Assembly (NCBI GenBank): GCA_964480105.1
Contig: CAYZPX010000001.1
Coordinates: 18,163 to 82,162 of the forward strand
Length of the DNA stretch: 64,000 bases
Source of the DNA: an uncultured Burkholderiaceae bacterium
GTDB lineage: Bacteria > Pseudomonadota > Gammaproteobacteria > Burkholderiales > Burkholderiaceae_C
Direction of reading: 5' to 3'
Shown: positions 10,534 to 11,837 of the stretch, in pieces
How positions within the stretch are numbered: the first letter of the stretch is position 1
How the letters are laid out: every line of letters starts with the position of its first letter
Notes under the pieces: model-generated
The model's database searches: none
Seen by the model: the letters and a program-made list of their open reading frames with translations, nothing else
What the model was told of the DNA's origin: nothing
Made by a program: the position numbers and the translations under genes

Positions 10534-10558
10534 AAAAAAAGCCCACTTAGGGGTGGGC
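10534..10558 (-). terminator. intrinsic terminator immediately downstream of the tRNA
   Basis: On the minus strand: GCCCAC-6 nt-GTGGGC followed by T7. Confidence 0.8.
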
Positions 10559-10566
10559 GGTGTGGG

Positions 10567-10643
10567 TGGTGCGTCAGTCAGGACTCGAACCCGAAACCAA
10601 GGGCCTAGAACACCCCTGCTCTATCCAATTGAGCTACTGACGC
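10567..10643 (-). tRNA. tRNA-Arg (anticodon UCU) with encoded CCA
   Basis: The minus-strand 77-mer folds by hand as: acceptor GCGTCAG/CTGACGC, D arm GCTC-AATTGGATA-GAGC, anticodon arm GGGGT-GTTCTAG-GCCCT (U33, TCT, A37), variable TGGTT, T arm TCGGG-TTCGAGT-CCTGA, then A-CCA. Confidence 0.9.
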
Positions 10644-10949
10644 ATGTTGGTTGATGGCGCCCTCTGCTCTAACGAGGGGCGGCAAGATTGCGAGTCTCCT
10701 GGTTTCGATGCACCTCCGCCATTCCTACTACTTGCCTTCGCGTTGTTGGGTGCCGGGGTACTCCCAGCATTGCCCTCACCATCACGGATGCGGACTGGCG
10801 CATGGTCCAAGCAAGCGGACCAGCCATTGCCATGCTTGTAACCAATCCGCAGCCGTGATAGTTGATGGCCTGCCTCCCATGAAGCAGGGTTTGCCTTCGG
10901 AACGCGCGTTTGCAAAACGAACTGCCAGGGTGCTAGGGCCTGGCGCAGA

Positions 10950-11059
10950 CCATCACAGAAGCGTGCAGGTGCTGATCTCCTGCTTTTGGCTATCCGAGGC
11001 CGTAGCTGCCAAACGGTCGCTGCGTGCGCATCAGCCTGCGCATTACGCTTCTGTGATGG
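10950..11059 (-). ncRNA. structured RNA module 1 (unassigned family)
   Basis: Closing helix 10950-10963/11046-11059 (14 bp). Hairpin GCAGG-TGCTGATCT-CCTGC. Insert hairpin TTTGGC...GCCAAA. Hairpin TGCGCA-TCAGCC-TGCGCA. Strand inferred from the promoter, the tRNA sense and the GNRA loops. Confidence 0.55.
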
Positions 11060-11132
11060 CCCCCGTCTTTCCGGGGTGTCCGTGGCTTAGGGTATATGCC
11101 ACGCCGTCATAACGCTACGGCCCTTCCCAAAC

Positions 11133-11289
11133 GTGATGGTGGCCGGTGCTGATTTCCGGCATTGGTTCATCGGCGTCCGCCAGCTTTCGCTGGAACGTTG
11201 GCATCGCCAATCCGCTTTCGCGTCGAAGGTAATCCTTCGCCTGACCCGTGCTTGCCTTACTGCGCGTCAGCCCGCGCATTCACCATCAC
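11133..11289 (-). ncRNA. structured RNA module 2 (unassigned family)
   Basis: Closing helix GTGATGGTG/CACCATCAC. Hairpin GCCGG-TGCTGATTT-CCGGC. 100-nt insert with two hairpins that are GAAA tetraloops on the minus strand. Hairpin TGCGCG-TCAGCC-CGCGCA. Confidence 0.55.
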
Positions 11290-11418
11290 AGAACAGGGCC
11301 GGTGCTGATCTCCGGCTTTGGTCTAGGCTGTCGGAGTCGAACCGATAAGGGCACCATTGGCCGACCAGCCTAGAGCCCCGCCTTGCGCGTCAGCCCGCGC
11401 ATTCCTGTTCTGTGATGG
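11283..11418 (-). ncRNA. structured RNA module 3 (unassigned family) with a nested tRNA-like minihelix
   Basis: Closing helix 11283-11297/11404-11418 (15 bp). Hairpin GCCGG-TGCTGATCT-CCGGC. Insert 11322-11374 has a 7-bp acceptor-like stem plus GGTTCGACTCC. Hairpin TGCGCG-TCAGCC-CGCGCA. Confidence 0.55.
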
Positions 11419-11765
11419 CCCTCGATATGAGGGCTTCGGTCGTCTTTCCGACCTGTCAGCGCTTGATGCGCTGGGCTTTGCTTTTCTTGGCATCCCTGTT
11501 TGCCTCAACCCCGTATTCAGCCCCAGGGTGTGGACTTCGAGGTGCATTGGCGCCATGGTTGTTTCCTCCCATGTGCCCTATCTCGTTCGCGTTGCCTGAT
11601 CCCATCCGAGGGCAGAGCGCTACTAGCCTTCGCACCGACGATCTTTTCTATCCCGCTACCGCCTGCGGTGCCCTGCATTTACCCAGCCGTGCCTGCTGCA
11701 TGAACTGTTCGGTGTGCGCCGATCCGCTTCACCCACCGCTGCGTTGTGTCGCTGCGATGGGATGA

Positions 11766-11794
11766 ATTATTGGCTAACCTATAACTCCAGTCAA
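11766..11794 (-). promoter_or_regulatory. sigma70-type early-left promoter (PL analogue)
   Basis: On the minus strand: TTGACT (11794-11789), 17-nt spacer, AATAAT (11771-11766). Overlapped and flanked by operator repeats. Confidence 0.6.
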
Positions 11795-11837
11795 TAGGAA
11801 ATCCAATATTTTTTGCAAAGTAAGTAGAAACCCCTAT
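11769..11837. promoter_or_regulatory. three repressor-operator-like 14-mers (OL analogue)
   Basis: ATAGGTTAGCCAAT (reverse complement of 11769-11782), ATAGGAAATCCAAT (11794-11807) and GTAGAAACCCCTAT (11824-11837). Same ATAGG-N4-CCTAT pattern as in the cI/cro intergenic region. Confidence 0.6.

Follow-up and report, generated by a model that had tools for sequence, protein, structure and literature searches.

The question raised by this locus is what a prophage transcribes between its leftward early promoter and its first early-left gene, where about 1.1 kb of non-coding DNA, a tRNA gene and a terminator intervene. The stretch analysed, here called the window, comprises 64,000 nucleotides (64 kb) of contig CAYZPX010000001.1 from an uncultured Burkholderiaceae bacterium; coordinates are positions in this window, and the leader and RNA features all lie on its minus strand. 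From 12100 to 10300 this strand carries, in order, the end of a DUF1828 gene, a terminator, a promoter-like site, about 1.1 kb of non-coding DNA, a tRNA-Arg gene, a further terminator and an open reading frame (ORF) starting with GTG. An earlier reading of the same DNA (the original prediction) had seen there a long structured leader, for which an RNA that modifies RNA polymerase, of the put or EAR-like type, was one explanation. The present analysis found in the leader three copies of an RNA motif that is widespread in phages, and proposes, with a probability of roughly 0.55, that 11794-10534 (minus strand) is an operon of stable, trans-acting RNAs driven by a PL-type promoter.

Three modules and a shared RNA motif

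The ORFs of the leader have GC contents at the three codon positions (GC1/GC2/GC3) of about 0.58/0.63/0.60, against about 0.64/0.44/0.75 in the genes of this phage; because all of them lack the phage pattern, the region is regarded as non-coding and devoid of an N-like ORF, in agreement with the original prediction. A 77-amino-acid (aa) ORF at 11556-11323 has a good Shine-Dalgarno sequence, yet its equally flat profile rules it out as an N-like gene. The idea of a 1.1-kb structured leader held up as to length and lack of coding, but not as to uniform structure. Within the first 340 nt or so, 11420-11700 folded no better than shuffled sequences (z scores of -1.8 and +1.9), and good folding was confined to separate segments, with z scores of -5.7 (11419-11282), -4.5 (11060-10949) and -4.8 (10870-10776). 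The "leader" is a set of discrete modules, not one structure.

Repeat analysis and inspection revealed that three modules, A, B and C, share two near-identical hairpins, H1 and H2. In each module a long outer stem encloses both hairpins, and unrelated inserts of 41-100 nt lie between them. H1 reads UGCGCR-GGCUGA-YGCGCA and H2 reads GCMGG-ARAUCAGCA-CCKGC in the window. The elements of the leader are given below, with scores from R1, a covariance model constructed from 39 sequences.

11420 to 11759, minus strand: 5' leader, non-coding and without significant structure, ending in the accessory hairpin GGUCG-GAAAGA-CGACC (11453-11438)
11282 to 11419, minus strand: module A, with an outer stem of 16 bp, H1 at 11401-11384 and H2 at 11316-11298; R1 83.3 bits, E ~2e-23
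11132 to 11290, minus strand: module B, with H1 at 11278-11261, H2 at 11160-11142 and an insert of 100 nt; R1 85 bits, E ~7e-24
10949 to 11060, minus strand: module C, with an outer stem of 16-18 bp, H1 at 11042-11025, H2 at 10983-10965 and an insert of 41 nt; R1 73.6 bits, E ~2e-20; preceded by an accessory hairpin at 11076-11061
10778 to 10869, minus strand: hairpin D, a long, imperfect inverted repeat (z -4.8) without H1 or H2 and without an R1 match

The R1 matches span 11410-11291, 11287-11135 and 11051-10958, as unequal units of 94-153 nt that score 74-85 bits, whereas the next best match anywhere in the window reaches at most 7.4 bits (E 3.3). Modules A and B are interlocked: the outer stem of B (GUGAUGGUG/CACCAUCAC) has as its 5' strand the sequence that also forms the 3' strand in the outer stem of A. 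The insert of module A is a tRNA-like minihelix, in which the T-arm-like sequence GGUUCGACUCC lies inside a stem of 8-9 bp and is followed by ACCA; the segment 11322-11374 gave a weak tRNA-Sec-like match in Rfam (19 bits, E 1.2). Hairpin D resembles the modules at its ends, starting with GCCAUCA and finishing with GUGAUGG. Rfam, applied to the window at gathering thresholds and to 10400-12000 at E up to 10, returned only tRNA, and both ARAGORN and the Rfam tRNA model RF00005 called 10567-10643 and no other tRNA, so the modules themselves are not recognized as tRNAs. The sequence GGCUGGUC in the inserts recalls Y RNA (YrlA), a resemblance that has no Rfam support on the window and was set aside.

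A scan of IMG/VR with the H1 18-mer yielded at least 120 viral loci (numbered L below), in about 105 of which R1 found the full-length motif; the remainder were isolated H1-like palindromes. Altogether the model located more than 110 copies in phage contigs beyond those of the window. The elements of the motif are, in order, an outer stem (7 bp or more), the linker AA, H1 with the same consensus as in the window, an insert of 30-250 nt, and H2 (GCCGG-AGAUCAGCA-CCGGC), which abuts the 3' strand of the outer stem. In an alignment of the 105 copies 98.9% of the cells are paired, and both partners have changed in all seven outer-stem pairs and in four of the five H2 pairs. The covariation score was 0.324, compared with 0.089 in shuffled alignments, none of 500 shuffles attained it, and slid controls gave at most 0.114. 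The motif contains frequent G-U pairs, which would be A-C mismatches on the opposite strand, and the minus strand of the window is for this reason taken as the RNA strand.

The loops of H1 and H2 are complementary, GCUGA facing UCAGC in a 5-bp Watson-Crick kissing interaction. The 105-copy set had been chosen by its H1 sequence, and three extra scans were hence made for variants of the H1 loop. Copies with the H1 loop GACUGA had UCAGU in H2 in five independent cases and UCAGC in two, whereas among canonical-H1 copies H2 carried C in 88 and U in 16 (Fisher p = 0.0025). Further compensatory loop pairs were GGUUGA/UCAAC at L136 and GGUGA/UCACC at L032. The loop-loop helix is thus supported by compensating changes on its two sides.

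Several dimensions of the motif are those of tRNA. The outer stem is most often 7 bp long (41 of 110 copies, with 8 bp in 20 and 9 bp in 30), as is an acceptor stem; the linker measures 2 nt; H2 has 5 bp and joins the outer stem at its 3' strand without a gap, as the T stem does; the insert occupies the position of the anticodon arm, and the H1 and H2 loops meet where the tRNA elbow lies. Of the 110 copies, 31 (28%) carry a 3' (N)CCA tail, against about 4% expected. Judged from these sequence features, the motif is a tRNA-like cloverleaf with a kissing elbow. It differs from tRNA genes in lacking canonical D-loop and T-loop sequences and an anticodon arm, in its insert of 30-250 nt, and in an elbow made of a 5-bp Watson-Crick kissing helix. 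The family as a whole has the tRNA-like shape, which the window copies reproduce only in part, their outer stems being 10-18 bp long and an NCCA tail being absent; individual terminators are also lacking.

Small GGAAAGAC-loop hairpins precede modules A (11453-11438) and C (11076-11061), and such hairpins also occur upstream of the motif in another high-GC prophage, L015 (~11302-11320 and 11366-11385). They may represent an accessory element of the motif family.

Distribution and relatives of the motif

A BLAST search with one member of the family matched 250 GenBank phage records, mostly from phages of Klebsiella (74), Pseudomonas (61) and Escherichia (54), and reached also Burkholderia, Salmonella, Aeromonas and Erwinia phages; 1,055 of 5,426 complete E. 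coli genomes (about a fifth) were matched as well. The phage types include P1-like, lambdoid, T1-like (members of the BASEL collection among them) and N4-like phages, so that genetic tests in model phages are immediately possible. No RNA feature is annotated under the motif among the matches listed, nor were the motif sequences found in the literature searched, the coverage of which was incomplete. Whether the host of the phage is Escherichia, Klebsiella, Pseudomonas or Burkholderia, H1 and H2 hardly vary. Scans for the H1 variant of the window gave two genome loci and seven short metagenome loci, with single copies only, and neither these scans nor the search for DUF1828 relatives turned up a close relative of this prophage.

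The inserts are highly diverse, with 64 non-redundant types among 87. At L002 (3701-3779, minus strand) the insert holds a hammerhead core, CUGAUGAG-stem-CGAAAC, which scores 28 bits with the Rfam model HH9 (E ~1e-4), below the gathering score. The insert at L155 (4324-4498, plus strand) contains a nearly complete tRNA-like sequence, with the D-arm GUUCAGUGGGUAGAAC and the T-arm GCGGGUUCGAGUCCCGC, for which ARAGORN makes no tRNA call, and that at L043 has tRNA pieces similar to those of module A. Some inserts are shared between unrelated phages: one type has an identity of 94-96% among T1-like, N4-like and lambdoid phages and of 88% in phages of Pseudomonas, and the motifs of the lambdoid phage HK633, where the motif lies between PR'/qut and the holin gene, and of the virulent T1-like phage ZCKP8 are 100% identical, insert included.

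About a dozen loci have tRNA genes no more than 1.5 kb from the motif, on the same strand throughout bar one; the exception, L004, involves a doubtful ARAGORN call (tRNA-???). In ZCKP8, tRNA-Arg(tct) and tRNA-Met begin 7 nt after the motif, and in the Klebsiella phage Magnus (Ackermannviridae) the motif lies amid tiny ORF calls, with co-oriented tRNA-Met and tRNA-Arg genes about 2.1 kb downstream. The P1-like phage JL22 (L121) has the order tRNA-Asn, tRNA-Thr, three tandem motif copies, tciABC, tRNA-Met and ban. Its copies (L121 3008-3817; near 69.8 kb in P1, AF234172) lie opposite the annotated lipoprotein gene plp and a small hypothetical ORF, and both gene calls may be artefacts of an unrecognized RNA array.

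The genes downstream of the motif are diverse and include those of N-like proteins, RecT, exonucleases and a ParB-like protein; no conserved partner protein was found among them. N-like antiterminators form the largest group, with 10 loci in which the ORF starts 27-31 nt past the motif. Because N-like, RecT and exonuclease genes follow it, the lambdoid motif is considered to lie typically in the early-left leader. A P22-like phage (L004) shows the order PL, boxA TGCTCTTTAACAA, boxB GCGCTGACAAAGCGC, motif, Shine-Dalgarno sequence and N. About 40% of the motif copies end 20-50 nt before the start of a same-strand ORF. A terminator occurs within 150 nt, often directly after the motif, in at least 25 of 108 copies, a figure obtained by a simple scan that undercounts, as it missed the terminator of coliphage mEp460. 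In mEp460 the order is repressor, terminator, about 300 nt, motif, terminator hairpin with UCUUUUU, and early-left genes, which by sequence repeats the layout of the window.

Upstream of enterobacterial copies stands a second stem with covariation, ACAGGUAAGRGCAUU ... GUGCUCUUWCCGU, whose 3' strand resembles boxA (UGCUCUUU) and whose interior in P1 holds the T-arm-like sequence GAGGGUUCGAAUCCCUAC. A reading of the UGCUCUUU segment as boxA is doubtful: in P1 the segment forms the 3' side of a stem with covariation, and L004 has its true boxA at another place. The stem was located as follows.

L121 2924-3007, 3140-3205 and 3625-3697: second covarying stem
L123 and L124, ~2400-2505: second covarying stem

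The nearest described relatives are STnc100 and PasD, related small RNAs (sRNAs) encoded near Q and the holin gene in lambdoid prophages of Salmonella and E. coli; PasD was found on Hfq by RIL-seq and interacts with many mRNAs (bioRxiv 10.64898/2026.05.13.724894). As read from the consensus of the Rfam family RF02076 (positions 31-147) and from the copy in phage 933W, STnc100 has the plan of the present motif, namely a 7-bp closing stem, AA(U), H1, an insert that forms hairpins of its own, and H2, of 5 bp, abutting the stem. The 933W copy reads CAUGGUG-AAU-H1-insert-CCGGGAGGCACCCGG-CACCAUG, followed by a terminator; it scores 207.7 bits with RF02076 and lies just after stxB2, convergent with AsxR. 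Like the motif, STnc100 is found in phage operon leaders or at moron sites, co-oriented with the operon. The degenerate third copy of P1 was matched by both models, at 28.6 bits with R1 and 34.4 bits with RF02076 (gathering score 47).

The two groups differ in several respects. The H1 and H2 loops of STnc100 are UGUGUGG and AGGCA, instead of GGCUGA and AGAUCAGCA; the STnc100 gene stands singly and has a terminator to itself, whereas the window has three tandem copies without terminators, joined to a tRNA operon; and the branch to which the window belongs is far wider, extending to virulent phages and to phages of Pseudomonas and Burkholderia. RF02076 gave no match on 10400-12000 of the window at E up to 10, its gathering score of 47 bits not being reached, and R1 gave none on the 933W STnc100 at E up to 0.1. 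As R1 misses the 933W STnc100 and RF02076 misses the window modules, the window motif is regarded, on sequence comparison, not as a member of RF02076 but as its sister branch, so far unannotated, within an STnc100-like superfamily. STnc100 and PasD thereby gain a structural framework, a cloverleaf with a covarying kissing elbow, and a much wider family.

A proposed operon of stable RNAs and the alternatives

The motif copies of the window are embedded in the following control features.

11858 to 11882, minus strand: intrinsic terminator of the cI operon, with the stem AACCCGC/GCGGGTT (11882-11864) and a T run; dG -11.0
-35 at 11794-11789 and -10 at 11771-11766, minus strand: PL-type promoter, TTGACT-17-AATAAT, agreeing with the consensus at 10 of 12 positions
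11769-11782, 11794-11807 and 11824-11837: three operator-like 14-mers of the type ATAGGnnnnCCTAT, overlapping the -35 and -10 elements
10567 to 10643, minus strand: tRNA-Arg(UCU) with encoded CCA, called by ARAGORN and by the Rfam tRNA model (56.1 bits)
10534 to 10558, minus strand: intrinsic terminator closing the RNA operon, GCCCAC/GUGGGC (10558-10541) with U7; dG -11.3 kcal/mol
10149 to 10457, minus strand: first early-left ORF, 102 aa, with a GTG start at 10457 and a coding GC3 signature

All of these elements had been placed in this order by the original prediction and were found again where it had put them, including the operators over the promoter. The TTGACT-17-AATAAT site is the sole minus-strand match in a promoter scan of 9500-14500. 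Three more 14-mers of the ATAGGnnnnCCTAT type, with 2-3 mismatches each, occur between cI and the cro-like gene (13815-13877), and owing to this resemblance the leftward promoter is interpreted as the repressor-controlled PL/OL equivalent; the 14-mers would be the sites to which the repressor binds. A second promoter between the 10534-10558 terminator and the GTG at 10457, an alternative that had been raised earlier, was not seen, the promoter scan of this interval being empty. Lacking a promoter-like site, the early-left operon needs read-through of the 10534-10558 terminator for its expression, as had been predicted.

In the proposed operon, transcription would be silent in the lysogen and would begin here first after derepression. 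The products would be the cloverleaf RNAs A, B and C, hairpin D and tRNA-Arg(UCU), the intrinsic terminator ending the unit. The primary transcript might be cut by the tRNA-maturation machinery, by RNase P at the 5' side of the acceptor-like stem and by RNase E and 3' trimming, so that the tRNA and stable RNAs some 95-160 nt in length would be set free. The module RNAs could then act in trans, by means of either their inserts or the conserved H1/H2 core; action via the inserts is modelled on what has been reported for the Hfq-associated relatives STnc100 and PasD. The terminator would behave as an attenuator, at which most transcripts stop, giving much RNA and little mRNA, while the fraction that reads through would supply the early-left recombination genes. 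Under this scheme the first product of PL in this prophage would be a stable-RNA operon, with the early-left genes depending on passage of its terminator, a design that recurs in mEp460.

The motif is independent of any particular neighbouring gene, as seen from the diverse ORFs downstream of it and from identical copies in unrelated phages. This independence of context, together with tandem copies that carry different inserts and with the linkage to tRNA genes, is what would be expected of self-contained RNA genes. The possibility of a processed sRNA/tRNA operon or a tRNA mimic, which the original prediction had listed among its alternatives, fits the evidence much better than a put-like element.

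Several points nevertheless weigh against an operon of stable RNAs. Cleavage by RNase P is predicted purely from shape, and the window copies, with stems of 10-18 bp and no NCCA tail, would be poorer substrates of this type than many of their relatives. The modules lack individual terminators. The position of some 40% of the family shortly before an ORF would suit a cis-acting role in a 5' untranslated region (5'-UTR) equally. The early-left operon, for which no promoter was detected, requires that a hairpin of -11 kcal/mol with U7 be passed. Finally, the near-invariance of H1 and H2 exceeds what pairing demands, which suggests a specific partner.

A wider interpretation is put forward tentatively. 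The modules might be part of a large superfamily of phage "carrier" RNAs, in which a tRNA-shaped scaffold bears varied cargo at the position of the anticodon arm (a hammerhead ribozyme core, tRNA-like minihelices, conserved inserts), STnc100/PasD being one small curated branch, and which hijacks tRNA processing or binds a host factor. Such a scaffold would deliver trans-acting RNAs early in infection by way of the tRNA-processing machinery; on another view its target would be a conserved host factor, perhaps RNA polymerase itself, in which case antitermination would be revived in a new structural form. Should the scaffold indeed exploit tRNA processing to deliver varied RNA cargo, nature would have its own version of the engineered "tRNA scaffold" with which recombinant RNAs are expressed.

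It is improbable, though consistent with part of the data, that the modules serve as RNA punctuation or as 5'-UTR elements, that is, as processing sites comparable to mitochondrial tRNAs or as stabilizing 5' structures, which would separate leader or nut RNA from the downstream mRNAs and set the 5' ends of the latter, the excised RNAs having no function. The tRNA-like shape and the (N)CCA tails agree with this, as do the many copies that end 20-50 nt before a same-strand ORF and the P22-like motif, which sits exactly between nutL and the ribosome-binding site of N. In lambda, an RNase III site between nutL and N processes the N leader. A processing signal, however, would need no inserts that are 88-100% conserved across unrelated phages and host genera, nor cargo as elaborate as the hammerhead core of L002 and the tRNA-like sequence of L155. 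Many copies also have a terminator of their own and no ORF close downstream, and the tandem copies of the window lie more than 500 nt from the first ORF.

About equally doubtful is a role as tRNA-mimic decoys or sponges, in which abundant early RNAs would titrate a host factor that recognizes the tRNA shape (a tRNA-targeting defence nuclease or toxin, RNase P, or a CCA-modifying enzyme), while tRNA-Arg(UCU) replenishes the targeted tRNA. The fold, the frequent NCCA tail and the linkage to tRNA genes, repeatedly to tRNA-Arg(UCU), speak for it, and the near-invariance of H1 and H2 across host genera suggests a conserved host partner. AGA accounts for only 11 of 517 Arg codons (2%) in 13 long phage ORFs, and being so rare it does not explain the tRNA by codon demand, which leaves room for a role in tRNA supply or host defence. 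Against a decoy, the canonical D-loop, T-loop and anticodon loop read by known anticodon nucleases and tRNA enzymes are missing, the inserts are too diverse to imitate one anticodon arm, and no defence or anti-defence protein is consistently adjacent; the functional role is itself a guess.

Processive antitermination in cis, as by put, is less probable still. Here one or more modules would fold on the nascent PL transcript, bind RNA polymerase and carry it past 10534-10558 and later terminators. The put element of HK022 consists of about 70 nt in two adjacent bulged stem-loops (stem I with a triplex, and stem II) arranged in a V shape, stands behind both PL and PR, and binds the zinc-binding domain of the beta' subunit (PMC9378689). 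The window shares with it the place just past a repressor-controlled early promoter of a lambdoid phage without N, ahead of a terminator. The order of promoter, motif, terminator and early-left genes without a second promoter-like site, here and in mEp460, argues for such a role, together with the tendency of the motif to lie early in long operons (in PL leaders and, for HK633, the PR' leader) and the absence of an N-like ORF from the leader.

The modules are nonetheless built differently, with an enclosing stem, a variable insert (41-100 nt in the window), kissing loops and three copies, none of them on the PR side, R1 having given no further match above 7.4 bits in the 64 kb. R1 also found nothing at E up to 1 in HK022 22000-33000 (Erf to O), the region expected to hold putL and putR, which are unannotated in the record. 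A lambda-type nut site consists of boxA (YGCUCUUUA) and then a boxB hairpin, with a small protein bearing an arginine-rich motif encoded farther down; no boxA/boxB pair comparable to that of L004 was seen by eye in the leader, so that such a site was not found either. The P22-like motif follows a complete nutL and precedes N by 27-31 nt, where it would be redundant for antitermination; among the carriers of the motif are virulent phages (T1-like, N4-like, Ackermannviridae), and some copies stand within tRNA clusters; arrays with unrelated inserts are unexpected for a polymerase-binding element; and the simple, undercounting scan left about 75% of copies without a terminator in the adjoining 150 nt. 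The positive support for a polymerase-modifying RNA of the put or EAR-like type has therefore gone, be it from architecture, the HK022 scan, the PR side or the co-occurrence with nutL and N, and with it the positive reasons for proposing an effect in cis on RNA polymerase.

Other known phage RNAs fit poorly. P1 c4 and P4 CI are phage antisense RNAs which, like the proposed modules, are cut from a leader transcript; an acceptor-like stem closes them, and they are RNase P-dependent. They act, however, through loops complementary to the same transcript. Complementarity of the 1.2-kb RNA to other parts of the window extends to 13 nt at most, no more than shuffles give (12-17), which makes an immunity circuit of the P4 CI/P1 c4 type unlikely, and the Rfam C4 model found no match on the window, though it found a true C4 in mEp460. 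Type III toxin-antitoxin systems consist of tandem repeats of about 34-36 nt, a terminator and a gene for an endoRNase of the ToxN/AbiQ type, and were rejected because the units here are unequal and 94-153 nt long, the 102-aa ORF downstream has no Pfam or PHROG family match, and the neighbours of the family are diverse. The anti-sRNAs AgvB and AsxR are different RNAs, of 51-60 nt and in the late region, and the M3 RNA of phi80, an RNase P substrate, is an annotated oop homologue beside cII and not in the position of a PL leader.

Neighbouring genes and further elements

When the 1.4-kb region and 6400-14300 were compared with GenBank phages by BLAST, matches were confined to the segments of the tRNA, RecT and the repressor (helix-turn-helix), and PHROG searches with ten window proteins returned only a weak Q-like protein (20415-20957). 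In mEp460 (L122 470-658, minus strand) a C4 antisense RNA scoring 83.6 bits lies inside the annotated Rha gene, next to an isrK-like RNA of 67 bits; both are unannotated in the record.

Between the terminator of the RNA operon and the first early-left ORF, at 10503-10520, there is a perfect 15-bp palindrome, CTATTCATTCAATAG, which resembles the sequence around the -35 element of PL and may be a regulator-binding site. The cI operon comprises the S24-type repressor gene cI (13814-13113), a 159-aa ORF and, last, the gene of the 250-aa DUF1828 protein, for which no relatives were found in IMG/VR. The latter two (11903-13140, minus strand) are co-transcribed with cI and occupy the position that rexAB has in lambda, which makes them candidates for exclusion or defence genes expressed from the prophage. 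Further along the early-left region, an ORF at 8956-9342 (minus strand) encodes the N-terminal domain of a dATP/dGTP diphosphohydrolase (PF18909, E 2e-31).

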